The notes beneath the pieces are model-generated. The model made no database searches, was not told the origin of the DNA, and saw nothing but the letters and a program-made list of their open reading frames with translations. DNA of 64,000 nucleotides from Myxococcota bacterium (lineage in GTDB: Bacteria; Myxococcota_A; UBA796; CAJQPC01), in assembly GCA_036012755.1 (NCBI GenBank), contig DASCPX010000027.1:303510-367509 (forward strand), in the 5' to 3' direction. Below, in pieces: positions 4,294-61,924 of the stretch. Numbering within the stretch: the stretch's first letter is position 1; every line of letters starts with the position of its first letter. The translations under genes and the position numbers were made by a program.

Positions 4294-5220
4294 TCAGCAA
4301 TCGCCGCTGTCGCCGTCGGAGCAGGTGTAGACGCAGCTGTCGTCAGCGCCGTAGGTCAAGTCGCAGGTCGTGCCATCACTGAAGGTCCACAGCCCCGTGC
4401 CCGAGCCGTCGTAGTTGCGCTCGGTGTGGACGTCGGCGTAGGGCTCCTCGCTGCCCTCGGCGACCGTGTAGTCCTCGACGGTGAAGCCGTTCTTCGCGAC
4501 GTCGGTGGTGCCGATGTAGACGTAGTTGCTGTCCTTGTGGACCTGACTCCACTCCTGGGTCTCTTCTCCCTTGGAGTTCGTCCGGGACCACGAGTCGTAG
4601 GCGATCGTGTCGCCGTCGTAGCTGACGTTCCGAACGTAGGCGAGCTCGGAGGTCCACTGGCCCCAGGCGCTCTCGATGCCGCTGCCGACCTCCGTCTCGG
4701 CGCTCCACTCGACCTTGTCGTCGCTGACGATGTCGTAGGCGACCTCGTACTGGGGGTAGCGTGGGAGGCTGCCGTCATCCTCCTCCCAGCGGTACTTGAT
4801 CCAGCCCTTGCAGCCCATGCGCTCGTCACGGCGAACATAGGTGACGGTGTTCCCGAGGACGTCCTCCTCCGTGATCTTGGCGCGGACGTCGAGGTTGCCG
4901 TTGGTGTAGACCGTCCCGTAGTTGCCGAACTCCGCGATGGTCCGCTTGCTCACCATGTAGCTGTCGTTGGTGTACTCGACCGTGTAGTCGAAGTTGCCGC
5001 TGCGGGTGCTGTAGCTGCCCTTCACGGAGCGGACGTTGGCGGGCTCGTAGTCGAAGTCCCAGGCGTAGGTGGCCTCCGCCCCCTCTTTCGGCTCGCCGCG
5101 GTCCACGTACAGGGCGAGGTCGTCGAACCAGCCGAACACGTCGTTGTCACAGCGTATGTTGCTGTCGAGGAAGTTGCCCCCGACCTCGGGGTTGCAGGCC
5201 ATTGCGAGCAGGACGAACAT
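4294..5220 (-). CDS. Hypothetical lipoprotein, Tyr/Asp-rich beta-strand protein
   Basis: MFVLLAMAC lipobox-like start, GGAG RBS, typical codon usage. Confidence 0.75.
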   Translation of the reverse strand: MFVLLAMACNPEVGGNFLDSNIRCDNDVFGWFDDLALYVDRGEPKEGAEATYAWDFDYEPANVRSVKGSYSTRSGNFDYTVEYTNDSYMVSKRTIAEFGNYGTVYTNGNLDVRAKITEEDVLGNTVTYVRRDERMGCKGWIKYRWEEDDGSLPRYPQYEVAYDIVSDDKVEWSAETEVGSGIESAWGQWTSELAYVRNVSYDGDTIAYDSWSRTNSKGEETQEWSQVHKDSNYVYIGTTDVAKNGFTVEDYTVAEGSEEPYADVHTERNYDGSGTGLWTFSDGTTCDLTYGADDSCVYTCSDGDSGDC

Positions 5221-5240
5221 CGTGTCTCCAAGCGTCTGGA

Positions 5241-6728
5241 TTACAGACGGCGCCGTCGACTCGCAAGGGCCACCAGGCGGCTCGTCTGGCTGGCGCTGAG
5301 CCCGAAGGCGGAGACGAGGTCTTCGTCGTCGCCGTCGAGCCAGCCGGACGGAACCGGCAAACCCTTGATAACGTTCGGATACAGGTCAAGGCGCGCGCCG
5401 CCTTCGATCCGGAGCAGGCCGTCGACGAGGGGGCTCCTGAGAAGGGTCAAGAGTCTGTCCAGATCCATGTCCTCCATGGGCCGGACCACCGTGAGCGTGT
5501 GCCCGGCGTAGAGACCCTCCAGGTCGATCACCGCGCGGACCGGGTGGGGACCGCGCAGACGCTGGACGAGGATCTTGGGTCCCTCGAAAAGCGCCGGACG
5601 CTTCGCTCGGTGCATCTGTCGGGGTCGATAGTCGAGCCAACGCCGCCTCCCCTCCAGCAGATCCCTCGCGTCCACGTAGGGCACGCGTCCCCCGCCAGGC
5701 TGGTCGCTGAGCAAGCGCGCCTTGCCTCCCTTCGGCCCATGGGCGACCACGCCGGTGTCGACCTCGCACAGCGTCCCGAGGGTGACCGCGTGCCTCCGCA
5801 TGTGTTCGACCAGGCCAGGGTCGCCGTGCTCCAGCGCGCGGTCGAGGGGGGCGTTGTCCAAGGCCAGGAGCTCGCCCGCCTCCATGCGCGGGTCCCAGGG
5901 CATCGGCGCGGGACCCTCGCCGATCGCCCAGGTCGCGAGGACGACCTCCACGCCAGCCCCCTCGAAGGGCGTGGGGCTCGACAGCTCCATGAGGCGGTGG
6001 CTCGCGAGCCAGCGCCGGCGCAGCGCCGCGGCATATGGCTGACTGGCCAGGGAGCTCGGCAGCACCAGGGCCGCCCGTCGAGTCGCGAGCTCCACCGCGT
6101 GGGCCAGGAAGGGCACGGCCAGGTCGAAGCGACCGCGAAGCCAGTCGAAGCGCTCCGAGAGGCGCGCGCGCAGCACCTTGTCCTGGTGCTCGGCGGAGAC
6201 GAAGGGCGGGTTGCAGAGCACCACCTCGGCGCCCTCGTCCCGCTCGAAGGCACTGCAGCGCTCGAGGTGGGCCTCCGGCACGGCGACGCTGGCGACGGCC
6301 AGCGCTGCCTGGTCGAGGTCCCAGCCCCTGATCCGGCTGGCTCCTGCTTGCTTCGCGGCGAGGAGGAAGGCGCCGGGACCACAGGCGGGGTCCAGCACGT
6401 CGTCTCCGCAGGCGCGAGCGAGCCCACGTGCCATCTGCCGGGGAGTGTCCCAGGCACCCCGACGCTTCCGCCCCGCCAGATCGAGCACCGGGAAGGGCTC
6501 GCCAGCGGAGAAGACCGCCACGGCGCGCGCGCTGTCGGGCTTCAGGCGCTGGAGGCGCTCACCCACGCCGGTGTCCATATCGAGGACGACGACCTGCGCA
6601 CGAGCCAGGGCGCCGGCCACCTCCACGACCCTCCAGGGGTCATCCGCGAGGAGCTCCGCGGCCGCACGACAGGCGATGGTGTGGTCGCCGTCGTAGACCT
6701 CTCGCCACCGGGAGAGCGCCCTACGCAT
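5241..6728 (-). CDS. N6-adenine DNA methyltransferase (gamma class, TaqI/Eco57I-like C-terminal TRD)
   Basis: GAWDTP, VLDPACGPGAFL (motif I), LCNPPF (motif IV), PKILVQ TaqI-C-like segment; start moved to ATG 6728, which overlaps the upstream GT stop. Confidence 0.8.
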   Translation of the reverse strand: MRRALSRWREVYDGDHTIACRAAAELLADDPWRVVEVAGALARAQVVVLDMDTGVGERLQRLKPDSARAVAVFSAGEPFPVLDLAGRKRRGAWDTPRQMARGLARACGDDVLDPACGPGAFLLAAKQAGASRIRGWDLDQAALAVASVAVPEAHLERCSAFERDEGAEVVLCNPPFVSAEHQDKVLRARLSERFDWLRGRFDLAVPFLAHAVELATRRAALVLPSSLASQPYAAALRRRWLASHRLMELSSPTPFEGAGVEVVLATWAIGEGPAPMPWDPRMEAGELLALDNAPLDRALEHGDPGLVEHMRRHAVTLGTLCEVDTGVVAHGPKGGKARLLSDQPGGGRVPYVDARDLLEGRRRWLDYRPRQMHRAKRPALFEGPKILVQRLRGPHPVRAVIDLEGLYAGHTLTVVRPMEDMDLDRLLTLLRSPLVDGLLRIEGGARLDLYPNVIKGLPVPSGWLDGDDEDLVSAFGLSASQTSRLVALASRRRRL

Positions 6729-11498: not shown

Positions 11499-11501
11499 CG
11501 C

Positions 11502-26250: not shown

Positions 26251-26271
26251 GCGGTTATGGGGGCCGGCTCA

Positions 26272-42732: not shown

Positions 42733-43329
<597 letters not shown>

Positions 43330-46210: not shown

Positions 46211-47080
46211 TCAGTCGGAGGGGTCCAGAGCGGCCTCGATGCCCCCTGGGGTGTGGCACGCCTGGCACAGGGCGCCGTCCTCCAGAGGCAGCCTGGACAG
46301 CGCCGAGTCCCCCGCGACCGGAGCCGCGTGGAGGCCGATCGACGGCGACCCCTGCTCCAGGCTCGGAGCCAGGACCTGCTCCAACCAGGACTCGGGGAAG
46401 GGGGACGAGTCGGGGATCTCACGGCTTCGCTGGGTGATCCCGGGGGGATGGGGGTCATGGCAGGTCGAGCAGACCAGCTCGCCCTGGGGAGTCAGCGGCA
46501 GGCCCGCTGCCTTGGCCCGCTCCGCCATCTCCGGCTCCATCGGCCCACGGTGGAGCGCGGATCCCGCGTGGGCCGAGAGCTGGTGGCAGGCCACGCAGAT
46601 CTCGTCGCCCTGGACCGTCGCTGGGGCGCGGCCCGTGTCGGCAGGGACCGGGTCGTGGCAGCCCAGGCAGCGGGTCGGGATCGCCGGGTCCAGCATCGCC
46701 TGGTGGGGGTCGAAGCCCACGCTGGTCAGCTCCACGTGGCAGGCGGCGCAGAAGCCGCGCTCGTTGGGATAGGTCCCCCTGAGCAGGCCGGGGCTGGCCG
46801 CGTCGCCGTGACAGGCGGGCTCGTCGTGGCAGCTCAGGCAGGCCAGCTCGCCATTCACCAGCGGAAAGACCCCTGGGACGGTCGCCGTCTCCGGCTTCAT
46901 CCCGACGGGGTGGGGATCGGCGGCGTGGCAGCTCAGGCAGGTCTCGTCCGCGGAGCCGTGGGTGAAGGAGACCTCCTCCGGGGCGGTCCCGACCGATGCC
47001 TCGGAGTGGCAGGCGGCGCAGCCCTCCGCGTCGCCATGGGGGTTGGCAGAGGCGCTCAGCAGCAGCAGGAGCCCGGTCAC
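46211..47080 (-). CDS. Octaheme c-type cytochrome (periplasmic, doubled-CxxCH-type)
   Basis: 8 CxxCH (CAACH, CLSCH x2, CAACH, CLGCH, CVACH, CSTCH, CQACH), HPVG and CSTCHDPH motifs; GTGA overlap. Confidence 0.9.
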   Translation of the reverse strand: MTGLLLLLSASANPHGDAEGCAACHSEASVGTAPEEVSFTHGSADETCLSCHAADPHPVGMKPETATVPGVFPLVNGELACLSCHDEPACHGDAASPGLLRGTYPNERGFCAACHVELTSVGFDPHQAMLDPAIPTRCLGCHDPVPADTGRAPATVQGDEICVACHQLSAHAGSALHRGPMEPEMAERAKAAGLPLTPQGELVCSTCHDPHPPGITQRSREIPDSSPFPESWLEQVLAPSLEQGSPSIGLHAAPVAGDSALSRLPLEDGALCQACHTPGGIEAALDPSD

Positions 47081-47370
47081 TCGCCCTCTCCCGTGTCGAC
47101 TCGGAGCGCCTCGACGCCGTTGTCTCCATGACATGGCACGCAGGTGGACGGGTCCTCTGGATCCGCCTCGATCTCTTCGACCTCGACCCCGCCGATGCAG
47201 TCCTGGCTGTGGATGTTCCAGGCCTGGTGACACTGGAAGCACTGCTCCTGGCCCCAGCCCACGCCGTGTTCCTCGGCGGTCAGGGTGAGCGCCGCCGGAG
47301 ACCTGGTCAGGTCCCGCGTCCCGGCGCAGGGATCCGGATCGCCGCAGGCGAGCAACAACAGCAGGCTCAC
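47077..47370 (-). CDS. Small diheme cytochrome c lipoprotein
   Basis: MSLLLLLAC, CFQCH, CVPCH. Confidence 0.85.
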   Translation of the reverse strand: MSLLLLLACGDPDPCAGTRDLTRSPAALTLTAEEHGVGWGQEQCFQCHQAWNIHSQDCIGGVEVEEIEADPEDPSTCVPCHGDNGVEALRVDTGEGE

Positions 47371-47951
47371 AGGGCACCTCCATCTGCGTGGCAGGCGACA
47401 CAGTCGGGCTGGAGGTGGCAGGTGCTGCAGGCGGCCGGATCAGCACGGGCCGCGATCCCGTGGATGCTGATCCAGCTGCGGTCGTGCACGTCGAAGGAGA
47501 TGGACTCCTTGTTCTCGTGGCAGTCGATGCACTCGGAGCTCAAGTGGCAGTCCTTGCACTGCAGGAGCCCCATGCGGCTCTGTCCCCCGTGGAGCTCCAG
47601 CCACCCGGCCCCGTGGCTCGCTGGTGGGGCGATCTGCTCGTGGCAGGTCTCGCAGCGCCCCGGGGCCTTGGTCCGCCGGTCGTCCGCCGGGTTGTGGCAG
47701 TAGTGACAGGCCTGCTCGGGCGGTCGGAGGAAGACCTCGTCCACCGCCTGGGGCGAGGCCGGTGTGGGCGCCGCCGCCCCCACCTGGTGACACGCAGTGC
47801 AGGAGAGACCCTCGCGCTTCAGGGCGCGCTCGTGGACCTCGTGGTCGAAGCGATCGAAGATCTGCTCTGAGTGCCCGGACAAGCTCGGGGCCGCGGCCCA
47901 GGCCAAGGGAGGGGCCAGGAGCAGGACCATCGCCGAGCTGCGCCACCTCAT
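47367..47951 (-). CDS. Heptaheme cytochrome c (c3/c7-like N-terminus)
   Basis: Signal peptide, FDHEVH, 7 CxxCH. Confidence 0.9.
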   Translation of the reverse strand: MRWRSSAMVLLLAPPLAWAAAPSLSGHSEQIFDRFDHEVHERALKREGLSCTACHQVGAAAPTPASPQAVDEVFLRPPEQACHYCHNPADDRRTKAPGRCETCHEQIAPPASHGAGWLELHGGQSRMGLLQCKDCHLSSECIDCHENKESISFDVHDRSWISIHGIAARADPAACSTCHLQPDCVACHADGGAL

Positions 47952-49078
47952 GGCAGGCTCACGACGAGGCCGGCGTTGCCTCGCAGATCGAAGCGATGGG
48001 TGGCGTCAGAGGCCGCCTCGACCCCGGCCTGGACGCGAAGCCGTTCCGTGAGCTCTGAGTGGACCTCGAGGCCCCCGGTCAGGACCGTGTCCCAGGGCTC
48101 GTGCAGCTTGCGATAGGGCACGACCGCCGCCGTGGCGTGCAGGCTCCGCGCGTCCGACAGGGACAGGGTCGCCCGCGCGCTCAGGGCGTGGAAGACACCG
48201 CCGGGCCCAGACCGGAAGGCGTAGGCAGGGGCGACGGTCCAGAGCCGAGCCCGTCCCGGCAGCCAGGCAACGTCGACGAGGTGGCCCCACTGACGCACCT
48301 CGTCCTCGGAGTGGGATGTGAGGGCGTAGCTGGTCCACAGGGTCGAGCGCCGAGCGCCTCGAAGACGCACGCTCCCACCGACCTGGTCGACCCCCTCCGG
48401 CGCAAAGGCGGCAGTGATGGCCTCGCCGAAGAGGGAGTCCGGGTCGAGCGCCTCTCTGTGCTGGGCGTGGATCGAGGCCCGCACTCCAGGGGTCAGCGAG
48501 CTCTCCAACGCGACCCGAGCCCACTGGACCGGGGCCTCCGGGCCGGTGACGACCAGCGCCCGGACCCCAGCCCGGTCGCCTCCCAGCCACAGCTCGCCGT
48601 CTGCATGGGGCGAGGACTCCACCCCCGCGAGACCACCGAGGCGGAGCCGGGCCGGTCCCTTCACCACACGAGCCTCGAGCCTCGCCATCGCCTCGCCGTC
48701 GGCGAGGTCGTCCAGGTCATGGTGCCGCGCCAGGCCCCCCCAGCCAGAGAACTGCAGCCCGCCCCTGGTCCAGGACAGCTGGGCCCCGTCCAGGCTCATC
48801 GGGCGCAGAGGTCCCCTCACGAGCTGGCGTCCCACCTCCCAGCTGCCCCATGTGGCCTGGGAGCTGGCGTTGAGCAGGTACAAGTCGGGATCGATCTCGC
48901 CGCTCCAGCTCAGGCCCGCGTAGCCCGACACCGCCACACCGTGGTGCTCGCTGCGCACTCGCAGGTACTCGCTGGCGGGGAGCTGGCGCTGACCGAGGAA
49001 GTCGTGGCGGACCTGGACCACGGTCTCGGACTCGGCGACCGTGGCGGCCGCGGCGGCACTCAGCAACGCCAGCATCAC
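47948..49078 (-). CDS. Predicted outer-membrane beta-barrel (porin of a porin-cytochrome cluster)
   Basis: Signal peptide, Cys-free, alternating amphipathic strands, VGRQ motif; sandwiched between multiheme genes with 4-bp overlaps. Confidence 0.7.
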   Translation of the reverse strand: MMLALLSAAAAATVAESETVVQVRHDFLGQRQLPASEYLRVRSEHHGVAVSGYAGLSWSGEIDPDLYLLNASSQATWGSWEVGRQLVRGPLRPMSLDGAQLSWTRGGLQFSGWGGLARHHDLDDLADGEAMARLEARVVKGPARLRLGGLAGVESSPHADGELWLGGDRAGVRALVVTGPEAPVQWARVALESSLTPGVRASIHAQHREALDPDSLFGEAITAAFAPEGVDQVGGSVRLRGARRSTLWTSYALTSHSEDEVRQWGHLVDVAWLPGRARLWTVAPAYAFRSGPGGVFHALSARATLSLSDARSLHATAAVVPYRKLHEPWDTVLTGGLEVHSELTERLRVQAGVEAASDATHRFDLRGNAGLVVSLP

Positions 49079-49824
49079 TCGGCCCCCCCGTGGCAGGAGG
49101 CCCCGCAGGGGACCTGCTCCGGTCCGTCTCCTGGCTCATGGCAACGCATGCAGACCGCCTCCCCCGAGACCGAGACGCCAGCGATGTGTCCGGACGGCCA
49201 GTCCTCCGAGTGAGGGTAGCTGGAGTGGCAGCGGGCGCACGCGACGCCGGAGATCCCACCGGTCCAGCTGGTGGCGTCGACAGGATCCGTGTGGCAGGCG
49301 ATGCAGTCCTCGGCGCCCTCGGCTCCCTGCTCGCCGTGGGCGCTCTCCCACCCCTCCGCGTGGGGGTACGACTCGTGGCAGGAGCTGCAGCCCACCTCGA
49401 TCGCACCGCCGAGGAGGTCGTCTCCGTGGCACGGGCCGCAGACGACGGCGCTGTCCGGTCGCTTCAGGGCGTAGGCGCCGTGCACCCCGGCCTCGGCCCA
49501 GCCCGCCGCGTGGGGGTAGCTCGCGTGACAGCTGGTGCAGCTCACCTCGCTCCCCTCGGCTTTGTGACAGCCCAGGCAGGTCTTCTGCTGCCCGTGGACC
49601 GAGCCCGCCACCCAGCCCTCGGCGTGGGGGTAGTGCTCGTGGCAGGAGGCGCAGGTGGGAGCCGTCGCCCCCTCGACGTGGCAGTCCAGGCAGGCCGAGG
49701 TGCCGAGCTCCAGGGCCAGGGCGCCGTGGCCTTCGTCGAAGCCCTCCGGGTGTGGGAAGCGGACCTCGCCCACCGGCTGGGGCGCTGGGTCGAGCAGCAC
49801 GCAGGCGAAGAACAGGACGATCAC
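49075..49824 (-). CDS. Decaheme-type cytochrome c lipoprotein built from internal repeats
   Basis: MIVLFFAC; 9 CxxCH plus terminal CGASCH; repeated CxxCHxxYPHxxxW. Confidence 0.9.
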   Translation of the reverse strand: MIVLFFACVLLDPAPQPVGEVRFPHPEGFDEGHGALALELGTSACLDCHVEGATAPTCASCHEHYPHAEGWVAGSVHGQQKTCLGCHKAEGSEVSCTSCHASYPHAAGWAEAGVHGAYALKRPDSAVVCGPCHGDDLLGGAIEVGCSSCHESYPHAEGWESAHGEQGAEGAEDCIACHTDPVDATSWTGGISGVACARCHSSYPHSEDWPSGHIAGVSVSGEAVCMRCHEPGDGPEQVPCGASCHGGAE

Positions 49825-51764
49825 GGGAACAGCCCCTCCCAGGCAGCCTGGAAGGCCTCGTGGGTGCTGCGTTCGCTGGGGTCCCCGGTTGGTCCCCTGA
49901 AGGTGCCGCCGGTCTGCTCGGCCAACCAGGCCCCGTAGGCGTGGCAGTCGGCGCAGGCGTGGGTGGGGTAGTCGCCTGGAGGCAGGGTGTCGGCGCCAGC
50001 CTCGTCGAAGGCCGAGAGCGTCTCCTCCGGCGCCAGCGCCACGAAGAGGTGAGATGACAGGTCACCGGAGCCAGAGAGCTCGTGGAAGCCGACTCGCGCA
50101 GCGGTCTGCGGCATGTGGCAGCCGGTGCAGCGCCCCTCCTCCGTGGGGCCGTCCGGGTCGTAGTCCCCGTGGCCGTCGTGGGCTTCGAGCGCCTCGCCCT
50201 GGAAGTCCGGCACCACGTGGCAGGCCTCGCAGAGCGAGTTGTCAGTCGAGGACGAGCGCAAAGAGCCGTGCTCTCCGGTGCCGTGGACCGTGTGGCAGTC
50301 GAAGCAGGCTAGCGACGCGTGCTTCGAGAGCGCCGCCTCGTCGGACTGCTGGCCCGGAGCCGCGGCAGCCCCAGAGGGCCAGAGGGTCGGGACGGAGCTG
50401 GCGTGGTCTTCGAGCTCCGCGCCCGGCTCGTAGAAGCCGAACTCGGTCGACAGGGGGAAGGGCAGGCCGCTGCCGTGGCCCTCGAGCGCGCCGTGGCACT
50501 GTCCGCAGACTCCGGCGGCGCGTCCGGCGTCGAGCTGGTCCGGACGCGTGATCGTGTCGGCCTTGTCCGGCTCGGAGGCGGCGATGTGGGAGGAGGCGGG
50601 CCCGTGGCAGCGCTCGCAGCCGACGCCGGTCTCGATCCAGCGGTCCCCGGAGCTCGAGCTCATGTCCACGCCGCCCTCGGCGTCCACCTCGAGATCGAAG
50701 CCCGTGGAGTGACAGGCAAAGCAGCCGGCCTCGGCCGAGAGCTCCGCCGCAGGGCTCGTCTCCTCGTCCACGAGGAACTCACCGGCCTCGTCGAACCAGC
50801 GCTCGGCCCGCCAGGCCCGCGGGGCGCTATCGGCCCAGCCCTCACGCTCGCTGTCATCGGGAGTCCAGGCCACCGGCAGGGGCCAGGCCTCATCGCCGAG
50901 CTCCGTGTAGGGGATGCCCGAGGACGAGCCCAGCCAGCCCGCCACCTCGTAGTCCCGGCTCTCGCCGCTGGCCGCTGACAGGCGCACGACGGGGTCCTCT
51001 CCGTCCATCCAGAGGGTGGCGCTGGCTTCGCCGAGCTCCACGACCTCGCCTGACTCGAAGAGCAGCAGGCGATCCTCGCTGGTGGCCTCCTCCAGGGCCT
51101 GGGCGTGGGGGCTGGGACTCCAGTCGCGCAGGATCTCGTAGTGACAGGCGACGCAGTAGCCGGAGCCGACCACCACCGAGTCACTCCGGGGTCGCCCACC
51201 GAGCGTCGCCACCAGCTGGACCGCGCCCTGCTCTGGCACGGTGACGTCCCAGAAGCGCCTCGACCAGTAGCGGTCATCGCTGACCTCCAGGTCGACGATC
51301 TGCCCACCGAGTCCGGGAATCCAGGCCGACCCTGCCTCGTCCGACCAGGCCGCGCTCCCGTCGCTGGCGACCACCAGAGCGCCCTCTACGGGCTCGCCGG
51401 CGGGGTCGAGGACCTCGACAGCCACTCCGCCGTCTGGCGAGATCGCTGGCGACAGGCTGATCTCGAGGTGGCTCCCCACCTCGACCCAGTCGGTGGTCGT
51501 GGCCTCCATGCCCTCGGCGACCGCCCACACCCGGAGCTCGCCTGGGGGCAGCAGGGTGAGCTCGAAGCTGCCGTCGGCTGCCGAGACGGCCTCGTAACCG
51601 TGGGGCTCGCTGGCCAGCTGCGCACCCTCGACCGGCAGACCGGCCTCGTCGGTCACGACCCCACTGAGGGTGGCGAGCTGGTCCCGCGCCGGGTGCACCG
51701 GAGCCTCGTCGCTGTCCCAGCCGACGGTCGGCACCGAGCAGGCCTGGATGAGTCCGAGCAGCAT
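49821..51764 (-). CDS. Octaheme cytochrome c lipoprotein with N-terminal carboxypeptidase-regulatory-like domains
   Basis: MLLGLIQAC; SGVVTDEAGLPVEGA; 8 CxxCH including GVGCERCHGP. Confidence 0.9.
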   Translation of the reverse strand: MLLGLIQACSVPTVGWDSDEAPVHPARDQLATLSGVVTDEAGLPVEGAQLASEPHGYEAVSAADGSFELTLLPPGELRVWAVAEGMEATTTDWVEVGSHLEISLSPAISPDGGVAVEVLDPAGEPVEGALVVASDGSAAWSDEAGSAWIPGLGGQIVDLEVSDDRYWSRRFWDVTVPEQGAVQLVATLGGRPRSDSVVVGSGYCVACHYEILRDWSPSPHAQALEEATSEDRLLLFESGEVVELGEASATLWMDGEDPVVRLSAASGESRDYEVAGWLGSSSGIPYTELGDEAWPLPVAWTPDDSEREGWADSAPRAWRAERWFDEAGEFLVDEETSPAAELSAEAGCFACHSTGFDLEVDAEGGVDMSSSSGDRWIETGVGCERCHGPASSHIAASEPDKADTITRPDQLDAGRAAGVCGQCHGALEGHGSGLPFPLSTEFGFYEPGAELEDHASSVPTLWPSGAAAAPGQQSDEAALSKHASLACFDCHTVHGTGEHGSLRSSSTDNSLCEACHVVPDFQGEALEAHDGHGDYDPDGPTEEGRCTGCHMPQTAARVGFHELSGSGDLSSHLFVALAPEETLSAFDEAGADTLPPGDYPTHACADCHAYGAWLAEQTGGTFRGPTGDPSERSTHEAFQAAWEGLFP

Positions 51765-51848: not shown

Positions 51849-52736
51849 TTGTACCTGACACTGCTCACAGCCCTGGCAGCCGAAGCTCCGCCCATCGTCG
51901 GCGGAGAGAGGACCGGCGACTACCCGGCGGTGCTCCTGCTCTGGACCGGCGACGCCACCTGCACCGGCACGCTCGTGGCTCCCAATTGGCTCGTCACCGC
52001 TGCCCACTGCGTGAAGGGTGGCGACCCGGACAAGATGAGCGTGCACGTGGGCAAGAGGCCCTTCGCCGGCTCCGAGGAGGCCTCCAGCGACGTCACGGAG
52101 CTCTTCGCCCACCCCGACTACCGGTCCAACATGAGCAAGGGCATGGACGTCGGGCTGGTCCACCTCGCCACTCCGCTGGAGTCGGTCGTCCCCATGCCGC
52201 TCACGAGGGCCACCATCGACAACAGCTGGGAGGGCCGCGACGTCCGGTACGTCGGCTACGGCGTCACCTCGGAGACCGCCAACGACTCGGGGGTGAAGCG
52301 CACGGTGGTCGTGCCCTTCTACCAGCTCGACGAGCACTGGATGTACACCTACGACCCTGGCCACAACATGTGCTGGGGAGACTCGGGCGGACCGGCCTTC
52401 GTCGAAGAGGACGGCGAGCTCGCCGTCGCCGGGATCATCTCCTGGGTGGGCAGCTGGGACGACGAGGATCGGCCCTGCTCCACCGGCTGGGGCAGCTCCA
52501 CCCGCATCGACACGGTGCGGGACTGGATCGACGGCTACGTCACGGTCCGCTACGCAGAGGACACCGGCTCCGCCGAGCCCTGGGACACGGCGCCTCCACC
52601 ACAGGACAGCGATCCGGTCGTGGAGCCGAAGGGCCCACCGGATGACAAGGGCGGCATCTGCGGCACCCTGCCCGGAGCAGGCAGCGCCATGCTCGGGCTG
52701 CTCCTGCTCGCCGGGGCCCGGCGTCGCCGGGGCTGA
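51849..52736 (+). CDS. Trypsin-like S1 serine protease with MYXO-CTERM-like tail
   Basis: IVGG, CTGTL, TAAHC, DVGL, GDSGGP; C-terminal GGICG..LLLLAGARRRR. Confidence 0.9.
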   Translation: MYLTLLTALAAEAPPIVGGERTGDYPAVLLLWTGDATCTGTLVAPNWLVTAAHCVKGGDPDKMSVHVGKRPFAGSEEASSDVTELFAHPDYRSNMSKGMDVGLVHLATPLESVVPMPLTRATIDNSWEGRDVRYVGYGVTSETANDSGVKRTVVVPFYQLDEHWMYTYDPGHNMCWGDSGGPAFVEEDGELAVAGIISWVGSWDDEDRPCSTGWGSSTRIDTVRDWIDGYVTVRYAEDTGSAEPWDTAPPPQDSDPVVEPKGPPDDKGGICGTLPGAGSAMLGLLLLAGARRRRG

Positions 52737-52742
52737 GGATCC

Positions 52743-53813: not shown

Positions 53814-54704
53814 ATGACGTTTCTCATGATGTTGGCGTGCGCGGGCCCCAACGGCGAGTGGGCCGAGGACCTCTACATGGGCACCCACACCCGCCTCACG
53901 CTCGACGCCAACGCGCTCTGCGCGGGGGTCTCCTGCGCCTGGGACGAGGTCCACGAGATCATCGAGGTCGTCATCGCGGATCCCGACGTGCTGGAGGCCG
54001 AGATCGCCGGCTCATCGACCGTCGATGTCGTCGCCACGCGACCAGGCACCTCCAAGGTCACCATCATCGGACTGGACGAGGAGCAGCAGGTGGCCGAACG
54101 CTACGTCGACATCACCGTCGCGCCGATCGAGCAGGCCCCGCTCTACCCGCGCTGCAACGTGCACGCTCCTGACGAAGAGGTCTACATCCTTCCCCCCGAG
54201 ACCGAGCTCTTCGTCGCCTGGAACCTCTGGGGAGACGACTACATCGAGCTCGAGGGTGACCCGGGCATCCGCTTCGACGACTTCGGGGTCATCGACCTCG
54301 ACACCGAGGAGCAGATCGCGACCCTGGTGAGCCCGGCGGAGCCCGGCGAGTACGTGCTGGAAGCCGACGCGCTCATGCGCCCGATGGCCTCCTTCGAGGT
54401 CCACGACGGCGAGTACGACGGGCTCGATGCCTACGCCCTCTTCGGCGAGGTCGTCGAGATCGGCGACAGCGTCTGGATCGAGACGGCCCTGCAGCTCGAC
54501 GGCCGCAACCTCTGCATCGACGAGTCCCCTCGCGAGATCACCGTGCTCACCCCGGATGTCTGCAGCCTCCACCCAGACACCAGCGTCACCGAAGCGACCA
54601 TCGAGGACCCCACCTTCCACGCCTACGCGGTGGCCTCTGGGGACTGCGTCCTGACCGTCGAGGCAGAGGGTCACAGCGCCGAGATCAACGCCATCGTGCT
54701 CTGA
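53814..54704 (+). CDS. Hypothetical acidic lipoprotein, Ig-like repeats
   Basis: AGGAG RBS, MTFLMMLAC. Confidence 0.75.
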   Translation: MTFLMMLACAGPNGEWAEDLYMGTHTRLTLDANALCAGVSCAWDEVHEIIEVVIADPDVLEAEIAGSSTVDVVATRPGTSKVTIIGLDEEQQVAERYVDITVAPIEQAPLYPRCNVHAPDEEVYILPPETELFVAWNLWGDDYIELEGDPGIRFDDFGVIDLDTEEQIATLVSPAEPGEYVLEADALMRPMASFEVHDGEYDGLDAYALFGEVVEIGDSVWIETALQLDGRNLCIDESPREITVLTPDVCSLHPDTSVTEATIEDPTFHAYAVASGDCVLTVEAEGHSAEINAIVL

Positions 54705-54709
54705 GGGTC

Positions 54710-57700
54710 CTACCTGCGGAAGGTGTGGTGGTTCTTGCAGTCCCAGGTGCGTCCGTCGCCGCAGACCTTGTAGCGGGAGTCGGCGCTCTTGGGTGAGACC
54801 CAGTCCTCCAAGCCCTCCTCCTGCCATCGGTAGGGGAAGGGAACGCCGGGCACCGCCTGGTAGATGGCGACCTCGTCGAGGGTGCCGTCCGTGCAGCCCT
54901 CGAAGGCCAGCCGGATGGCGACTTCGGTCTCGGACTCGGGCACATCGGCCCTGGCGGTCGTGACGTCGAGGCGGTCGACCACGACATCACGCACCTCTGC
55001 GGAAAAAGAGCTCGTGCCCAGCACAGAGGCGTTCACGACGCAACCCGCTGGCAGCTCCGTGTGGAAGCGCACGAGGAGCTCCTTGGGCCACTCGCTGTCG
55101 AGCTGGACCGTCGGGCTGTCCCAGACCGTGGTCGGCCCCAGGCGCAAGAGCGCGCCAGTTTGGGGCCATGTGAAGTCGCTCTCCTCGAGCGCAGCGCCGC
55201 TCACGGTCCAGGACTCGACACCCCCGGGCAGCGCGGCGTCCTTCGAGATGAGCCAGTCGTCGACCAGCGCCCATCCGGGCTGCCAGAAGTAGTGGCCCGC
55301 CTGGCGCATGACCCGCGGCCCCTGCCGGTCGGTGCCCCAGGCGAAGTGGGCCACTCCGGGCACGTCGAAGCCGTGGGTGCGGCCGGTGCCCGCGGCCAGG
55401 GCGGCCCAGGCCCTGGCGTTGTCGGGGTCCCAGGCGCTGGCGCCGATCACGCCGAGTCCGGCGCCCGTGAGATCCCGGACGAAGCTCATCAGGGTCTCGT
55501 GGCCACCGTCATCCTTGCCGACCCGGCGCACGTCGTAGTGCCACCACGACAAGAAGACCGTGGAGGCAGGCACGAAGTCCCGAGCCCCGGAGGTGCCTCC
55601 GACGAAGCCGCCGTGGGGCACCTGGTAGGCAGCGCGACCGGGTATGCCGCCCTCGCTGTCCCCGCCGTTGTGCCAGGGAGTGAACATGTCCCCGGAGACG
55701 AGCAGCCGACGCTCGCTCACCGTCTCGGCGCAGACGCAGGGGGCGAAGTCTCCGCTGAGCGGGTCCGCGAGCATCGAAGAGCAGTCCGGGGCCTCGGCGC
55801 AGCCCCCGCTGTTGTCGCAGAGGGCCTCTTGCACGCCGCAGACGAAGCTCCCGAGGGTCTCCGAGGCGCTCGTCTCGTAGTAGCCGGCGCTCGCCCGGTT
55901 GAACCCCCTCGCCTCTCCTCCAAGATCCGAGATGCCGACGAAGTCGCTGTCGACCCCGTGGTCCGAGAGCGCCTTCAGCTGCCCCGCGGGCCCGTGTTCG
56001 TGCTCCCACCACCCTGACTCGTAGACCCCCGGCGCGTAGGTCCAGTGGGACTGGCGGACGGAGAGCCCGGGCCACAGCCCAGCGTGGATCCAGGTGCGGT
56101 AGGAGACCTCGACCAGCTCCCCCTCCGAGGCGCAGGCGGGGTCGATCTCGATGCTCCCGAACGGCCCGAGGGGCGCACCATGGGCGTCGAAGTAGCTCGC
56201 GACGCTCAAGGCGCCCTCGAAGCCCGCCTCGACGGTGATGCAGTCGCCTCCGAGCTCCTCCTCTCCGAAGACACGGACGCTGGAGGCGTCGATGCGAGGC
56301 AGCTGAGCGTCGACCTCGAAGAGCTGGATGTCGTCGACGTAGAGCTTCGAGCCCGGCCGCCCGAGCAGCTGCAGGTAGGCCTCGGTCACCCGGTCATCGA
56401 CCAGCGGCACCCGGTAGACGAAGGAGAACCGGACCCACTCGGCGTCCCGCGACAGCGTGTCCCCCTTGGCGGTGAGGTAGTCGCTGTCCTCGCGCTTGGT
56501 GTTCAGGGGGGCGACGTCCAGGGCGTTGGTGATGCCCTCTGAGTCCTTCACCACCACCTTGACGCGCAGATCCTGGGTCTTGGTGACCAGGGCTCGGAAG
56601 GACAAGGCGTAGAGCCGACCGGCGTAGGGCTCCTCGATGGGCATCGGCACCCGGATCGCCGGGTTCGCGCAGGTGGCATCGGGCTGCAGCGCCAGGCCCC
56701 GCAGCCCCCTGACCTCGCTCCAACACCCCGCGACCTGGCAGGCGCCGAGGGGCTTGTCGCACTTCCAGAGCTCGGTGGGCAGCTCCGTCTTGTCGGTATC
56801 CCAGCGCGGAGTCACGGCCTTCGGGGCCGCAACGTGGCCCTCGGCGTCGAGGTCCTCGCAGTCCTCTGCGAGGAACAGCCGCCCCTCCAGCGCGCAGACC
56901 TGCATCTCGCGAGGGAGGACGGAGAACCCCTCGGAGAGCGTGACGTCGCCCTCTGCACCCCAGAGCTCGTAGGGGTCCTCCAAGCTCAGGGGTGGTCCGG
57001 CGATTGGGGTGTCACCGACCCGGGTCTCCAGCCCGAAGACCGAGGGCACGAGCTCGACCCCGCGATCCCCGAGGTAGCGGTCGAGCTCGGCGTAGAGGAG
57101 AGCCCCACCACAGCCGGTGAGGTCCTGCAGGGTCGATCCGGTGGCGACCGGGTAGCCCTCGTCGAGGGCGTGGGTGAAGCGCCCGGACACGAGGGTGTCG
57201 AGCCGGACGAGCACGTCGTTGCATGTGCCCACTCCGCGCTCGCAGCCGATGGTCGCCGCCCAGAAGACCGAGGTCTCGTCAGGCTGATCGCAGGTCCCGA
57301 GCTCGACGCCCACGATGTTGGGGACGAAGTGAGCGTTCATGGTGCCCTTGAAGGAGGCGAAGCCCATGCGCACGTCGATGGCGGGGTGGTCACTGACCGT
57401 CTCGGGGCACCAGGTGACAGCCTCGACCGGGCTCCAGCCACCCCTCCAGCAGGAGGCGTCCCCGAGGCAGCTGCCGTCGTAGTCGCTGCACTCGTTGCGG
57501 GCGGTGAACTCGGAGTGCGGGTCCGGAGCCCAGGCGCCGTCGACGGTCTGCACGTGGTCGAGGCTCTGGAGCCAGGCCATCGCCCCGTAGACCAGCCCCT
57601 GCCTCGTCCCGCCGGCGATCAGGATCCCGTCCCTGCGCCAGCCGATGACGTAGCCCTGCTCGTGGATGTCCGTGAGCGAGACCTCGAAGTGATTCTCGAG

Positions 57701-57982
57701 GTGGGCGCGCTGCTGCGCCGAGAGCTCGTCGACGCTGGCCAGGATCAGCCGAGACCCGGCCTGGTCGAACTGCATGGGCGGGAGCTGGTCCTCGCAGCCC
57801 ATCAGGAGCTTGCCCTCGGCCAGCAGGCTCGCGACGCTCGCGCTGGCCTCGCCCTTGGACTCGATCGACCAGGTCTGATCGATCACCAGGGCATCGCCAC
57901 AGCTCGCGGGGACGTGAGCTCGGGCCTGCACCGTCGCCGAGTCATGCGGAGAGCCACAGGCAGCAAGGAACCAGAGCAGCAT
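54710..57982 (-). CDS. Large lipoprotein with GH20/GH67-like N-terminal domain and CBM-like modules
   Basis: MLLWFLAAC; EQGYVI..GILIAGGTRQGLVYG..LQ; YVDDIQLFEV and LDEVAIY CBM-like ends. Confidence 0.65.
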   Translation of the reverse strand: MLLWFLAACGSPHDSATVQARAHVPASCGDALVIDQTWSIESKGEASASVASLLAEGKLLMGCEDQLPPMQFDQAGSRLILASVDELSAQQRAHLENHFEVSLTDIHEQGYVIGWRRDGILIAGGTRQGLVYGAMAWLQSLDHVQTVDGAWAPDPHSEFTARNECSDYDGSCLGDASCWRGGWSPVEAVTWCPETVSDHPAIDVRMGFASFKGTMNAHFVPNIVGVELGTCDQPDETSVFWAATIGCERGVGTCNDVLVRLDTLVSGRFTHALDEGYPVATGSTLQDLTGCGGALLYAELDRYLGDRGVELVPSVFGLETRVGDTPIAGPPLSLEDPYELWGAEGDVTLSEGFSVLPREMQVCALEGRLFLAEDCEDLDAEGHVAAPKAVTPRWDTDKTELPTELWKCDKPLGACQVAGCWSEVRGLRGLALQPDATCANPAIRVPMPIEEPYAGRLYALSFRALVTKTQDLRVKVVVKDSEGITNALDVAPLNTKREDSDYLTAKGDTLSRDAEWVRFSFVYRVPLVDDRVTEAYLQLLGRPGSKLYVDDIQLFEVDAQLPRIDASSVRVFGEEELGGDCITVEAGFEGALSVASYFDAHGAPLGPFGSIEIDPACASEGELVEVSYRTWIHAGLWPGLSVRQSHWTYAPGVYESGWWEHEHGPAGQLKALSDHGVDSDFVGISDLGGEARGFNRASAGYYETSASETLGSFVCGVQEALCDNSGGCAEAPDCSSMLADPLSGDFAPCVCAETVSERRLLVSGDMFTPWHNGGDSEGGIPGRAAYQVPHGGFVGGTSGARDFVPASTVFLSWWHYDVRRVGKDDGGHETLMSFVRDLTGAGLGVIGASAWDPDNARAWAALAAGTGRTHGFDVPGVAHFAWGTDRQGPRVMRQAGHYFWQPGWALVDDWLISKDAALPGGVESWTVSGAALEESDFTWPQTGALLRLGPTTVWDSPTVQLDSEWPKELLVRFHTELPAGCVVNASVLGTSSFSAEVRDVVVDRLDVTTARADVPESETEVAIRLAFEGCTDGTLDEVAIYQAVPGVPFPYRWQEEGLEDWVSPKSADSRYKVCGDGRTWDCKNHHTFRR

Positions 57983-58020
57983 CGATCAGATCCTACCCAG
58001 CCAGCCCTCTTCGGCCGCGT

Positions 58021-59055: not shown

Positions 59056-59137
59056 GCCGCGTTCTACCGCGGGAGCTCAGCGAGCGTAGAGCTGCTCGGG
59101 CGAAGCCACCCCCAGGCCGGTTGCATTAGACGTTCCA

Positions 59138-60199
59138 ATGCTCCTCCTCATCGCTTGCACCGCACAGCGCGCCGACAGCTCGACTCCGAGCGTCTACGAG
59201 GACGACAGCGTCTGGCTCTGCCACCCGGAAAAGGACGGCGACGTCTGCTCAGAAGACCTGTCGTCCACCGTCGTCGAGGGCGACGGGACCCTCACCCTCG
59301 AGCCCCACGTGCCCTCGGCGGACCCCGCCTTCGACTGCTTCTACCTCTACCCGACCTGCAGCCTCGACCAGGAGGGCAACAGCGACTGGGAGCCCGGCGC
59401 CGAAGAGGCCTTCATGGTGAAGAACCAGGCCGCGCGGCTGTCCGAGGTCTGCCGGGTCTTTGCCCCCGTCTACCGCCAACGGACCATCCGCGCGCTCTTC
59501 GACGACACCCTCGACGGCGACAGGGACATGGCCTTCGGCGACGTCGAGGAGGCCTGGCGTTTCTACCTGGAGCACCACAACGAGGGGCGCGGTGTCGTGC
59601 TCGTGGCCCACTCCCAGGGGGCCTACATGCTCAAGCAGCTCCTGGCCGATGTGATCGAGCCCGAGCACCCCGAGCTCCTCGTCGGCGCCTGGCCGATCGG
59701 AGCGGCGGTCGAGCCCGGTGACTTCGAGACCCCCCTGTGCTCGTCTGCGGACGAGGCGGGCTGCGCCCTGAGCTACCTCAGCTACCGAGTCGAGGAGCCG
59801 CCGGACGACGACTTCATCTTCGCCAAGGTCGGCTCCGACGTCGCATGCCTGAATCCCGCCGGCATCGGCGCGGGCTCCGTAGAGCTCCACGGCTACTACC
59901 CGACTGAAATACCCGACGGGCTCGCAGCGTTCATGCCAGGTGGGTCGAACCCCTGGCAAGAGGAGGGCGAGGACATCGAGACCCCCTTCTACACCCTGCC
60001 TGGACTGGTCACGGCCGAGTGCGCCGCGACCGGCGAGACCGGCTACCTCGCGGTCAGCGTGCATCCGGACCCGGAGGACCCCCGCGCGGACGACATCGAA
60101 GGGGACTTCCTGCCCGGCTGGGGCCTCCACCTCGTCGACGTGAACATCGCGATGGGCGACCTCGTCGACCTCGCCGAGCGCCAGTACGCAGCCTGGTGA
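59138..60199 (+). CDS. DUF3089-like alpha/beta hydrolase lipoprotein
   Basis: WLCHP, DCFYLYPT, FAPVYRQ, AHSQG, WGLHLVDVN. Confidence 0.85.
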   Translation: MLLLIACTAQRADSSTPSVYEDDSVWLCHPEKDGDVCSEDLSSTVVEGDGTLTLEPHVPSADPAFDCFYLYPTCSLDQEGNSDWEPGAEEAFMVKNQAARLSEVCRVFAPVYRQRTIRALFDDTLDGDRDMAFGDVEEAWRFYLEHHNEGRGVVLVAHSQGAYMLKQLLADVIEPEHPELLVGAWPIGAAVEPGDFETPLCSSADEAGCALSYLSYRVEEPPDDDFIFAKVGSDVACLNPAGIGAGSVELHGYYPTEIPDGLAAFMPGGSNPWQEEGEDIETPFYTLPGLVTAECAATGETGYLAVSVHPDPEDPRADDIEGDFLPGWGLHLVDVNIAMGDLVDLAERQYAAW

Positions 60200-61323
60200 G
60201 GCCGATCCTCGCTGGAGTCCTGGTGCTGTCGCTGGCATGCGGAGTGAACCCGGAGCCCGTGGCCGAGCTCAGCGTCGAAGAGCTCAGCCGCTACGTGCGC
60301 AAGGACGCCGACGACCGCGAGGGCTGGGCCACCGACGTGAGGGACGGCTTGAGGCGGGCAGACCGTCCGGTCGACGCCGACCACGCCTGCCAGGTCCTGG
60401 CGATCATCGAGCAGGAGTCCGGCTACGACCCGGATCCCGCCGTGCCGGGGCTCGCCGCCATCGTGGAGGAGGAGCTCGGCGCAGAGGTCGAGGACAAGCT
60501 CGGCTTCCTCGGCCCGACCGCCCTGGAGATGCTGCTCGACGTCACGCCGGAGGGCTCGGACCGCCCCTTCAGGGAGCAGCTGCGAGCTGTGCGCACCGAG
60601 CGGGACGTGGACCTGTTGTTCCGCGACCTGAAGGACCACCACGCGCTGGCCGCGCCCAGGCTCGCCAGCGGCGTCGAGCGCATGGCGCCGCGCATGCTCG
60701 AGCGCCTCAACCCGGTGAGCACCGCCGGCTCCATGCAGGTCAGCGTCGCCTACGCCCAGGAACACCGGGTGAGCCAGGACCTCGACCGGGAGACGGTCCG
60801 CGACCTGCTCTACACCCGCCACGGGGGCGTGCTCTACGGCACCCTGAGGCTCTTCGACCACGAAGCGGACTACGACGAGCCCGTCTACCGCTTCGCCGAC
60901 TTCAACGCGGGCCAGTACGCCTCTCGCAACGCTGCCTTCCAGACCCAGCTCGCGGACCTCACGGGCACGGACCTTGCCCCGGACGGAGACCTGCTGATCT
61001 GGACGGATCGGGGCACCCCCGCGAACGCGGACGGCGAGACCGTGAACGCCCTGTTGGCCTGGCGGGAGGCAGAGGCGCCGGAGCTCAACGAGACCTGGAT
61101 GCGCTGGGAGCTGCGGAGCGAGAAGACGCGCGACTTCGAGTCCACCAGGACGTGGCGGCTCTTGCGCGCCTCGTGGGAGTCCAAGCACGGCCACGAGCCC
61201 GCCTACGCCAGGGTCCCGGATGTCGCGCTGGACTCGCCGAAGCTCTCTGGAAGCTGGACTACGCGCTTCTTCGCTGAGAAGGTGCAGGCACGGTACGAGA
61301 CCTGTCTCGCCCGCGGAGGCTGA
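60196..61323 (+). CDS. DUF1615 (YaiW-like) lipoprotein
   Basis: DREGWATD, AIIEQES, NPVSTAGSMQVS, YRFADFNAGQYASRNAAFQ, SPKL. Confidence 0.85.
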   Translation: MRPILAGVLVLSLACGVNPEPVAELSVEELSRYVRKDADDREGWATDVRDGLRRADRPVDADHACQVLAIIEQESGYDPDPAVPGLAAIVEEELGAEVEDKLGFLGPTALEMLLDVTPEGSDRPFREQLRAVRTERDVDLLFRDLKDHHALAAPRLASGVERMAPRMLERLNPVSTAGSMQVSVAYAQEHRVSQDLDRETVRDLLYTRHGGVLYGTLRLFDHEADYDEPVYRFADFNAGQYASRNAAFQTQLADLTGTDLAPDGDLLIWTDRGTPANADGETVNALLAWREAEAPELNETWMRWELRSEKTRDFESTRTWRLLRASWESKHGHEPAYARVPDVALDSPKLSGSWTTRFFAEKVQARYETCLARGG

Positions 61324-61324
61324 C

Positions 61325-61924
61325 GTGCTCTGGATCCTGTGCTGCATCCCACCGGAGACGCAGCTCCCCGACAACTCCTCGGAGTCCGTCGTCTACGGGG
61401 ACTCGGACAGCTCGGACGCGGACACCGACACCGACGCGGACACCGACTCCGACTCCGACACGGACACGGACACCGACACCGACACCGGACCCGACCTGGA
61501 CCCGGTCGTGGTCTGGGCCGTGCGACACGCAGAGAAGGAGCCCGAAGGCGACGACCCGGGGCTCACCGACGAGGGGGCCGAGCGCGCCCTGGCCCTGGTC
61601 GAGGTCATGGCCGAGATCCCGATCACCGCGGTCTACGCCACGGAGAAGGCCAGGACCCAGGAGACCTGCCAGCCCACCGCTGACGACCACGGGCTCGAGG
61701 TCCGCACCGACATCGACCCCGAAGACGAGCTCGCCGCGCTGGTCGTCACCGACCACGCCGGTGAGACGGTCCTTCACTGCGGCCACAGCTACACCCTGCC
61801 CGACTTCTTCGACGCCATCGGGGCCGACGAGGCGGACGGCGTCTCCGGCTACGGCCAGATCTGGGTCCTCACCGTCGACGACGGCGAGGTGGCGATCGAG
61901 ATGGGCCACTTCGGCGAGGAGTGA
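61325..61924 (+). CDS. Histidine phosphatase (SixA/PGM-like) lipoprotein with DT linker
   Basis: VRHAEK, LTDEG.ERA, RTQET, GHS. Confidence 0.85.
   Translation: MLWILCCIPPETQLPDNSSESVVYGDSDSSDADTDTDADTDSDSDTDTDTDTDTGPDLDPVVVWAVRHAEKEPEGDDPGLTDEGAERALALVEVMAEIPITAVYATEKARTQETCQPTADDHGLEVRTDIDPEDELAALVVTDHAGETVLHCGHSYTLPDFFDAIGADEADGVSGYGQIWVLTVDDGEVAIEMGHFGEE

Follow-up and report, generated by a model that had tools for sequence, protein, structure and literature searches.

Textbook rules and the usual predictors assume that a bacterial signal peptide carries a basic n-region and spans ~16-25 residues, and the parts of the review PMC9360617 drawn on here describe only this charged form of the signal. 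Two further papers, in the passages used, propose that prl changes in SecY (prlA) and Sec61 make the channel easier to open and thereby admit defective signals (PMC2171872, PMC3164448). In these passages, I187 is one of the residues that form the isoleucine ring, and prlA alleles are found at positions of this ring (PMC2171872); most prl alleles map to the pore ring, the plug or the lateral gate, and for Sec61 polar substitutions of the pore ring are among them (PMC3164448). Here, we describe a class of much shorter, uncharged N-termini ending in a lipobox-like Cys, found in a stretch of 64,000 nucleotides (the window; contig DASCPX010000027.1, positions 303,510 to 367,509 of the forward strand, assembly GCA_036012755.1) and throughout the genome to which it belongs. 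The source genome, hereafter G000, is that of an uncultured marine bacterium of the Myxococcota, with an assembly of 6.73 Mb in 250 contigs that is 96% complete. The window has a G+C content of ~69%, and no match to 16S rRNA was found in the 250 contigs of the assembly.

Gene starts of the window

The original prediction, drawn from the window alone, listed 11 N-terminal peptides of this kind. All of them are present at the coordinates given, with starts at 5220, 38337, 45423, 46139, 47370, 49824, 51764 and 57982 on the minus strand and at 42733, 53814 and 59138 on the plus strand. Their short, uncharged type held up, while the predicted range of 6-11 residues before Cys had to be corrected to 6-10. 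Lys and Arg are absent from all 11, and no Tat-type RR motif is present, as 0 of the 11 N-termini contain any Arg. GTG is the initiator at 42733, 47370 and 49824 and TTG at 45423, where Met stands only as the initiator. Three short N-termini of non-lipoprotein type were also recovered, at 49078 (minus strand), 51849 (plus strand, TTG) and 26272/26257 (plus strand). Arg-bearing lipoprotein-type signals occur in the window as well, namely MRCVVLMLGLSALVAC near 39720 and MRPILAGVLVLSLAC at 60196.

That these short, charge-free N-termini are genuine gene starts, as had been claimed, is supported by upstream stops, by the G+C content at third codon positions (GC3), by gene overlaps and by public gene calls. 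No ATG, GTG or TTG lies upstream in frame before the stop for 5220, 42733, 46139, 47370, 49824, 57982 and 59138. The upstream frame is open but devoid of a start over 55 codons at 5220, 23 at 47370, 19 at 49078, 79 at 49824 and 16 at 59138. Elsewhere it closes at once: at 42733, the upstream gene ends in frame with a TAG 2 codons ahead of the GTG, leaving 1 open codon, a TAG lies 4 codons upstream of 46139 (3 open codons), and a TGA lies 2 codons upstream of 57982 (1 open codon) and 3 codons upstream of 26257. A farther start candidate exists for 38337, 45423, 51764 and 53814, the sole one at 45423 being a GTG 20 codons upstream; for these genes the in-frame GC3 is 0.43-0.63 upstream versus 0.87-0.97 downstream of the short start (0.63/0.93, 0.43/0.87, 0.60/0.93 and 0.63/0.97, respectively), and for 5220 the values are 0.67/0.90.

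The 4-bp stop/start overlaps that were said to pin several starts are found at 45423, 47370 and 49824, and also at 49078, one of the non-lipoprotein examples. The adjacent -10 boxes were likewise located, with TAnnnT at -12 to -14 before 38337, 51764 and 57982. Shine-Dalgarno cores precede 5220, 46139, 47370, 49824 and 53814, and no recognisable signal was seen upstream of 59138. Independent marine metagenome contigs over 50000-59999, which include the start of the 1090-aa gene at 57982, contain no insertions or deletions. Public gene calls give exactly the same sequence from the same start for 7 of the 7 ATG-start window proteins looked up, including those at 5220 and 51764. Strain variants of the CotH protein at 38337 retain the N-terminus, the start is the same in 7 of 7 public cluster members of the 46139 protein, and four cluster members share that of the 53814 protein. 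An A>G strain variant at window position 57975, present in two independent runs, replaces Leu by Pro as the third signal residue of the 1090-aa protein (MLPWFLAAC). Of the 6 cluster members that include the N-terminus, 5 have the Pro form, which makes it the commoner of the two. We judge upstream extension to be excluded or unlikely for each of the 11 window starts.

Short uncharged N-termini throughout the genome

Genome-wide counts were made on stop-to-stop open reading frames (ORFs) of at least 300 nt with GC3 >0.80 and GC3 > GC1 > GC2, a set of 4538 ORFs that covers 85% of G000. Lipobox-like N-termini were found in 863 ORFs, and in 481 of these the farthest possible start lies at most 12 residues before Cys. 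No canonical start exists farther upstream in the ORF for 432 of the 481, a stop stands 0-4 codons upstream in 158, and 457 are also free of Lys, Arg, Asp and Glu. The Cys occupies residue 7-10 in 386 of these 457, with a mode at residue 8. The genome-wide survey of first-Cys position and n-region charge that the original prediction had called for confirms that the short uncharged class dominates the short Cys positions: with Cys at 7-9, G000 has 270 uncharged N-termini, 3 with Lys or Arg and 1 with Asp or Glu, in a count that required only three lipobox residues plus Cys and used no hydrophobicity filter. The short class therefore lacks the positively charged n-region of Sec/signal peptidase (SPase) II signals, and its Cys lies well ahead of the usual position, commonly put at about residue 15-35. 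The rule of PROSITE PS51257, which expects Lys or Arg near the start and Cys beyond ~residue 15, would miss such signals.

The N-terminal hydrophobic stretch ends in [LVI]-x-[GAS]-Cys, as a lipobox does. In the 457 genes, Leu takes position -3 in 60% and position -2 in 63%, and position -1 is Ala in 72%, Gly in 15% and Ser in 13%, so that the box reads L-L-A-C, with the -1 residue and the Cys imposed by the search. The core is 52% Leu. At the DNA level, the pattern ATG(NTN)5KCNTGY has 47 matches in G000, whereas its reverse has 0 and a variant with TGG in place of TGY has 1; the short Leu-rich Cys pattern exceeds chance. A crude screen gave, in addition, 212 short uncharged SPase I-type signals, a number that includes some lipoproteins for which the cut was placed one residue too late.

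The region upstream of the short starts was analyzed in aggregate for 456 genes. In-frame GC3 is 0.62-0.65 per 5-codon bin over the 40 codons upstream and rises to 0.91 in the first bin of the gene. Lys plus Arg amount to 15.0% in frame versus 15.8% and 15.7% in the other two frames, and upstream stops are commoner in frame than in the other two. A TAnnnT box is most frequent at -12 (77 genes; 21 more have it at -13) and is present in 119 of the 456, and a Shine-Dalgarno core in 199. The step in GC3, the equal basic content, the in-frame stops and the promoter and ribosome-binding signals together exclude a hidden upstream basic n-region for the bulk of the genes, though for single genes less firmly.

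TAnnnT boxes 12-13 nt before the first start codon occur in 357 of 4502 G000 genes (~8%) and are ~3 times commoner on short-signal genes, where the boxed starts are ATG in 57 and GTG in 42. Their position suggests leaderless transcripts. Leaderless transcription as a link to the short signals was considered and rejected: -10 boxes at -12/-13 reach 7.9% in G000, 5.1% in the high-trait relative G012, 3.9% in the low-trait relative G004 and 6.5% in another order, similar rates irrespective of the trait. The exported-type proteome of G000 is acidic throughout, with 3.8 Asp plus Glu versus 1.05 Lys plus Arg per 20 residues, and 92% of the short-signal proteins are net negative over their first 20 residues. 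Because the entire exported proteome is acidic, a special acidity just behind the Cys was rejected.

Lineage distribution and orthologues

The number of genome matches to ATG(NTN)5KCNTGY was used as an index of the trait in 41 relatives (genera g1-g7 and families numbered f) and in 301 genomes across the phylum. The index is 47-57 in the bacterium's own genus g1, 48-96 in g4, 27 in g2 and 14 in g6, and it is 3-11 in g7, 1-4 in g3 and 1-2 in g5. In other families of the order most values are 0-8, with 9-29 in f7, 14-17 in f4 and 22 in one genus of f6. An index of at least 10 was reached by 16 of the 41 relatives. In the phylum sample this value was attained by 9 of 44 genomes from the order of G000 and by 0 of 257 from outside it, where the top values are 9 and 5.

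As a control, the same pipeline was applied to 370-400 kb from each of four relatives. Short uncharged N-termini make up 453 of 859 lipobox-like N-termini in G000 and 21 of 44 in G012 (g4), and they drop to 6 of 42 in G004 (g3), 0 of 12 in G029 (f3) and 2 of 46 in G168 (another order). The low counts show that the short signals are no product of the pipeline, and the data support the trait as lineage-specific.

The orthologues in low-trait relatives carry charged, longer signals, as in a pair of 51% identity in which MTAPARWGRLSLLLGAVGC in the low-trait relative stands against MTWLLLAC. BamD orthologues in low-trait relatives also have a charged, longer signal; BamD was discarded as a conserved lipoprotein marker, since in the order it mostly has an SPase I-type signal, and serves as an illustration only. 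In a large protein search, 76 of the 121 DUF3089 homologues listed carry a 13-35-residue signal with Lys or Arg, while the nearest homologues (64-70% identity) start with MLLLLAC. Homologue alignments had been proposed as a means to reveal longer upstream starts, and these nearest relatives begin equally short. A comparison of DUF3089 orthologues among the 41 genomes was abandoned because only 7 of the 41 matched, too few.

Lipidation and export machinery

G000 encodes one SecY, one SecA, one Ffh, two Def, one Lnt (over the cut-off) and two LolA, together with five Lgt and two LspA. A tandem lspA-lspA-lgt-lgt cluster lies at C59:99943-102645 (L004:367-3069), with three more Lgt genes elsewhere. 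Both LspA copies retain the NxxDR and FNxAD motifs. Across the 41 relatives, the copy numbers are 1-2 for LspA and 3-6 for Lgt regardless of the trait, and tandem LspA pairs also occur in the index-0 genomes G029, G035 and G025. LspA/Lgt copy number as a cause was rejected, the counts being the same in low- and high-trait relatives. The original prediction had implied an unusual specificity of Lgt and LspA; this finds no support in the copy numbers, which are independent of the trait, in the LspA motifs, which are intact, or in the SPase I-type signals, which are short too. The latter point to a step of the Sec route that both signal types share and not the lipidation enzymes, and for this reason SecY was examined.

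Compared with E. coli SecY, the SecY of G000 keeps five pore-ring isoleucines and has Ala at the I187 position (E. coli numbering, taken from an ungapped alignment around transmembrane segment 5). Only 4 of 449 alignment columns are disjoint between 34 SecY from the order and 9 from outside it in the same phylum. The four order-specific changes are E110 to Gln, T168 to Ser or Ala, I187 to Ala or Ser, and F192 to Thr, Ser, Ala or Val, and two further SecY of the order agree (36 in total). At the I187 position, all 36 order members have Ala or Ser, whereas the 9 genomes from elsewhere in the phylum all have Ile or Met. The order's SecY thus has a substitution in the pore ring, one of the sites typical of prl alleles together with plug and lateral gate. 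The four positions read E75/Q3/D1, T79, I54/T19/V2/S2/A1/Q1 and F55/M17/L5/Y2 in 79 SecY of other phyla, a set that was selected with peptide patterns of the query, is mostly alphaproteobacterial and is thus no fair sample. One TAG or TGA was seen inside the SecY match in each of L232, L244 and L246 (G024, G081 and G303).

Short-signal genes and cargo of the window

Judged by their families and motifs, the short-signal proteins of the window appear to be of types that must leave the cytoplasm. Haem c is attached outside the cytoplasm. The original prediction had pointed to haem-c cargo in need of export, and four short-signal proteins of the window indeed carry 5, 2, 9 and 8 CxxCH motifs; two of the four match cytochrome c families above the Pfam cut-off, and cytochrome c maturation genes are present in G000. 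The remaining short-signal proteins include a CotH protein, a DUF3089 protein, a TSP3-repeat protein and a trypsin-family protease with only 15 residues ahead of IVGG. Elsewhere in G000, a LolA homologue starts with MLLSVLALGLAA, three codons behind a stop.

A tightly packed gene row on the minus strand (43333-51764), with several 4-bp overlaps, encodes five proteins with 5, 2, 7, 9 and 8 CxxCH motifs and one 376-aa protein without CxxCH. The row resembles a multihaem electron-transfer module of the periplasm or the cell exterior. The 696-aa protein with 5 CxxCH (43333..45423) begins MITPLLFCLAC from a TTG that overlaps the preceding gene's stop by 4 bp (TTGA). The 97-aa protein with 2 CxxCH (47077..47370) begins MSLLLLLAC from a GTG, with a GTGA 4-bp overlap and GGAGG at -11. 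Next to it, the 194-aa cytochrome c with 7 CxxCH (47367..47951, minus strand) has by contrast an ordinary charged signal, MRWRSSAMVLLLAPPLAWA, so that both kinds of signal occur side by side in one operon-like row. The 376-aa protein (47948..49078) has a short SPase I-type signal, MMLALLSAAAAA, which begins with a GTG in a GTGA 4-bp overlap with the upstream gene. The 249-aa multihaem cytochrome c with 9 CxxCH (49075..49824; Cytochrome_C7, E 6e-10) begins MIVLFFAC from a GTG, again in a GTGA 4-bp overlap; here the VLL after the Cys is also hydrophobic, and use of the lipobox is least certain for this protein. The 647-aa multihaem cytochrome c with 8 CxxCH (49821..51764; Cytochrome_C554, E 2e-14; CarboxypepD_reg, E 8e-20) begins MLLGLIQAC, with TATGCT at -14. 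The 126-aa protein at 45759..46139 (minus strand), which has a bacterial TSP3 repeat, begins MNSLLLLGLAC behind AGGA at -11.

Three more of the genes lie on the minus strand. The 308-aa protein at 4294..5220, which has no Pfam match, begins MFVLLAMAC from an ATG, with GGAG at -9. It is adjoined by a protein of Eco57I/N6 DNA methylase type with a TaqI_C specificity domain (5241-6728, minus strand), which probably belongs to a restriction-modification system. The 430-aa CotH-family protein (37045..38337; E 1.3e-34) begins MLPLLLAC and has TATGCT at -12, the leaderless type, and the 1090-aa protein (54710..57982) begins MLLWFLAAC, with TAGGAT at -13. On the plus strand, the 198-aa protein at 42733..43329 has an N-terminal peptide of 11 residues that starts with a GTG and is followed by an Asp/Thr-rich linker; the long, low-complexity and acidic Asp/Thr repeat stands directly behind the lipobox Cys (42760-42870). 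The 296-aa protein at 53814..54704 begins MTFLMMLAC, with GAGGAG at -12 to -7, and the 353-aa DUF3089 protein at 59138..60199 (E 6.4e-38) begins MLLLIAC, with six residues before Cys.

The signals without a lipobox Cys on the plus strand belong to the 295-aa trypsin-family protease at 51849..52736 (Trypsin, E 5.8e-25 from residue 22), which starts with TTG behind GGAG at -9 and reads MYLTLLTALAA-EAPP-IVGG, and to the 455-aa protein at 26257..27624, the uncharged SPase I-type signal of which, MGAGSMILALAGAALA, has an alternative start at 26272 that gives MILALAGAALA. The pipeline also matched a 218-aa protein outside the original 11 (35057..35713, plus strand), with a 16-residue uncharged lipobox signal, MSTPAASILLVLVGLAC. 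A lipoprotein on the minus strand (39217..39720) provides a contrast with its more ordinary signal, MRCVVLMLGLSALVAC, which could begin 9, 15, 21 or 27 residues ahead of the Cys.

Interpretation and alternatives

Given the starts observed, their number and lineage distribution, the machinery present and the SecY substitutions, we infer that the eleven N-termini of the window and the ~450 genome-wide are probably genuine minimal signals that take the ordinary Sec, Lgt and LspA route, with export and lipidation of the proteins behind them. The best explanation overall, which we hold with modest confidence, is that they are complete, working Sec-type lipoprotein signals of Met, five to nine uncharged Leu-rich residues and Cys, roughly one third as long as the textbook signal, and that SecY gating may be loosened. 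A very hydrophobic Leu core (52% Leu) without any basic residue would engage the Sec translocon. The N-to-C charge difference, for which Lys or Arg is normally responsible, would be provided by the strongly acidic mature chain (net ~-3 over the first 20 residues). Hikita and Mizushima, in 1992, and Izard, Rusch and Kendall, in 1996, reportedly found, going by their titles, that missing positive charge can be compensated by the hydrophobic core. The L-L-A-C lipobox may then be handled by ordinary Lgt, LspA and Lnt. The relaxed step would be the common one, the opening of the SecY channel, as SPase I-type signals are equally shortened; the four SecY substitutions of the order would represent a permissive, prl-like loosening of channel gating, and the signals may have shrunk to differing degrees in different genera of the order.

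A causal role of SecY is a tentative part of this explanation. That the unusual SecY of the order lowers the gating barrier is possible but not probable, and it is rather doubtful that a whole order with a naturally loosened, prl-like SecY enabled several lineages to reduce nearly all their signals, for export and for lipoproteins alike, to Met and five to eight uncharged Leu-rich residues. Several points weigh against it. All four substitutions are also found in the index-0 members G029, G035, G025, G040, G022 and G028, so they are not sufficient and at most permissive, and no SecY column separates high- from low-trait genomes inside the order at 80%/15% thresholds. The four substitutions represent a single phylogenetic event, for which reason their association with the trait may be coincidental. 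Thr, Ala or Ser stands at the I187 position in 22 of the 79 SecY from other phyla, and we know of no short signals in other phyla with such a SecY. Other points bear on the rest of the explanation. Net charge is -3.1 behind short signals and -2.2 behind charged ones, so that the acidity is only slightly stronger, and the published compensation is said to have used a longer hydrophobic stretch, while the core is shorter here. The counts themselves derive from a GC3-filtered ORF list rather than from a trained gene caller.

The main rival explanation is that no adaptation is needed at all: the signals would be real and working with unchanged machinery, ordinary Sec, Lgt and LspA would tolerate Met-Leu5-7 before an acidic chain, the shortening would have arisen in some genera by drift or by selection for economy, and the SecY substitutions would be unrelated lineage markers. 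We consider this a serious though less than probable alternative. An index of 0-96 among genomes that share the same SecY residues favors it, as do the lack of any SecY column that tracks the trait inside the order, the LspA and Lgt copies that do not track it either, the small or polar residue at the I187 position in those 22 of 79 SecY, and the occasional short uncharged N-terminus even in another order (2 of 46). It fits poorly with an index of at least 10 in 0 of 257 genomes outside the order, where all nine SecY read have Ile or Met and Phe at the respective positions. Outside the order, moreover, all 88 SecY (79 + 9) have T168, and position F192 is always occupied by a large hydrophobic residue; the constancy of these two positions implies that the SecY of the order is truly unusual. 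A specialization of duplicated LspA/Lgt paralogues for short signals could be read into the two tandem LspA and five Lgt of G000 (lspA-lspA-lgt-lgt), but it is the least probable of the alternatives, because the copy numbers are the same without the trait, tandem LspA is found in index-0 G029, G035 and G025, and SPase I-type signals, which do not use Lgt or LspA, are shortened too.

The N-termini might also be real with the Cys unlipidated or the segment uncleaved, serving as an anchor or being cut by SPase I, the lipobox likeness being partly a matter of composition. The predominance of Leu instead of Ala or Ser at -2 (63%), atypical cases such as IQAC at 51764 and the VLL after the Cys at 49824, and the common short SPase I-type signals without Cys (212 by the crude count) agree with this. 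We regard it as improbable: the distance to Cys is sharply fixed (position 7-10 in 386 of 457), Leu at -3 (60%) equals its share in the charged lipoprotein signals of the genome, with Ala, Gly or Ser at -1 by construction, the DUF3089 family has ordinary lipoprotein signals elsewhere with Cys in the same place, and five Lgt, two LspA and one Lnt are encoded. That the true starts lie upstream at other codons (CTG, ATT, ATC and the like), or that mis-assembly hides a normal basic n-region, is very unlikely. Some upstream frames are open and Arg-rich, as at 45423, where the GTG 20 codons upstream would give MHDRPRARGAQGRDRRTRGL, and in the BamD of G000, and the aggregate test leaves room for a minority of such cases. 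Against this stand the in-frame GC3 step exactly at the start codon, the stops 0-4 codons upstream in 158 of 481 genes, the -10 boxes at -12, the four window starts that overlap an upstream stop by 4 bp, an upstream Lys plus Arg content that is equal in all three frames, the lack of indels in independent contigs, and the same short starts in relatives of 64-70% identity.

Comparison with known systems

No paper describing such short, charge-free signals was found in our literature searches, in which coverage of subscription journals was thin. The phylum-wide index is new here, as are the controls run through the same pipeline, the unbiased count of charges, the null results for LspA/Lgt copy number and for leaderless transcription, and the four order-specific SecY positions. 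If the signals work as proposed, much of the envelope proteome of the order would be invisible to rules that expect a long, basic signal, and Sec, Lgt and LspA would accept signals far below the minimum that is taught. Should SecY indeed be loosened, the order would be a natural experiment, and the minimal bacterial signal peptide would gain a new definition. Sister genera with long and short signals on the same proteins provide matched natural controls, the four SecY positions, among them a pore-ring residue, are a concrete and testable candidate cause, and very short, efficient leaders would serve secretion engineering.

As far as the consulted parts of PMC9360617 describe canonical Sec/SPase II signals, of the E. 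coli Lpp type, the short signals resemble them in their N-terminal position, in a hydrophobic core followed by a lipobox Cys, in the encoded Lgt, LspA and Lnt and in cargo of periplasmic or envelope type. They differ in having no positive n-region, in a length of 6-12 versus ~16-25 residues, in a core that is 52% Leu and in a -2 position that is mostly Leu. The SecY of the order shares with the prlA (SecY) and Sec61 prl alleles the replacement of a pore-ring Ile, at the I187 position, by a smaller or polar residue, although the passages used of PMC2171872 and PMC3164448 name no prlA allele at I187 itself. Compared with the alleles in these passages, the substitution here, with its putative prl-like effect, is natural and order-wide, is accompanied by three others and is also present in members with ordinary signals. 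The engineered charge-free E. coli signals of Hikita and Mizushima (1992) and Izard et al. (1996), to judge by the titles, are similar in that a hydrophobic core may replace the charge. By contrast, the core of the signals described here is shorter, at ~5-8 residues, and they are a natural and proteome-wide feature of the bacterium rather than a mutant reporter.

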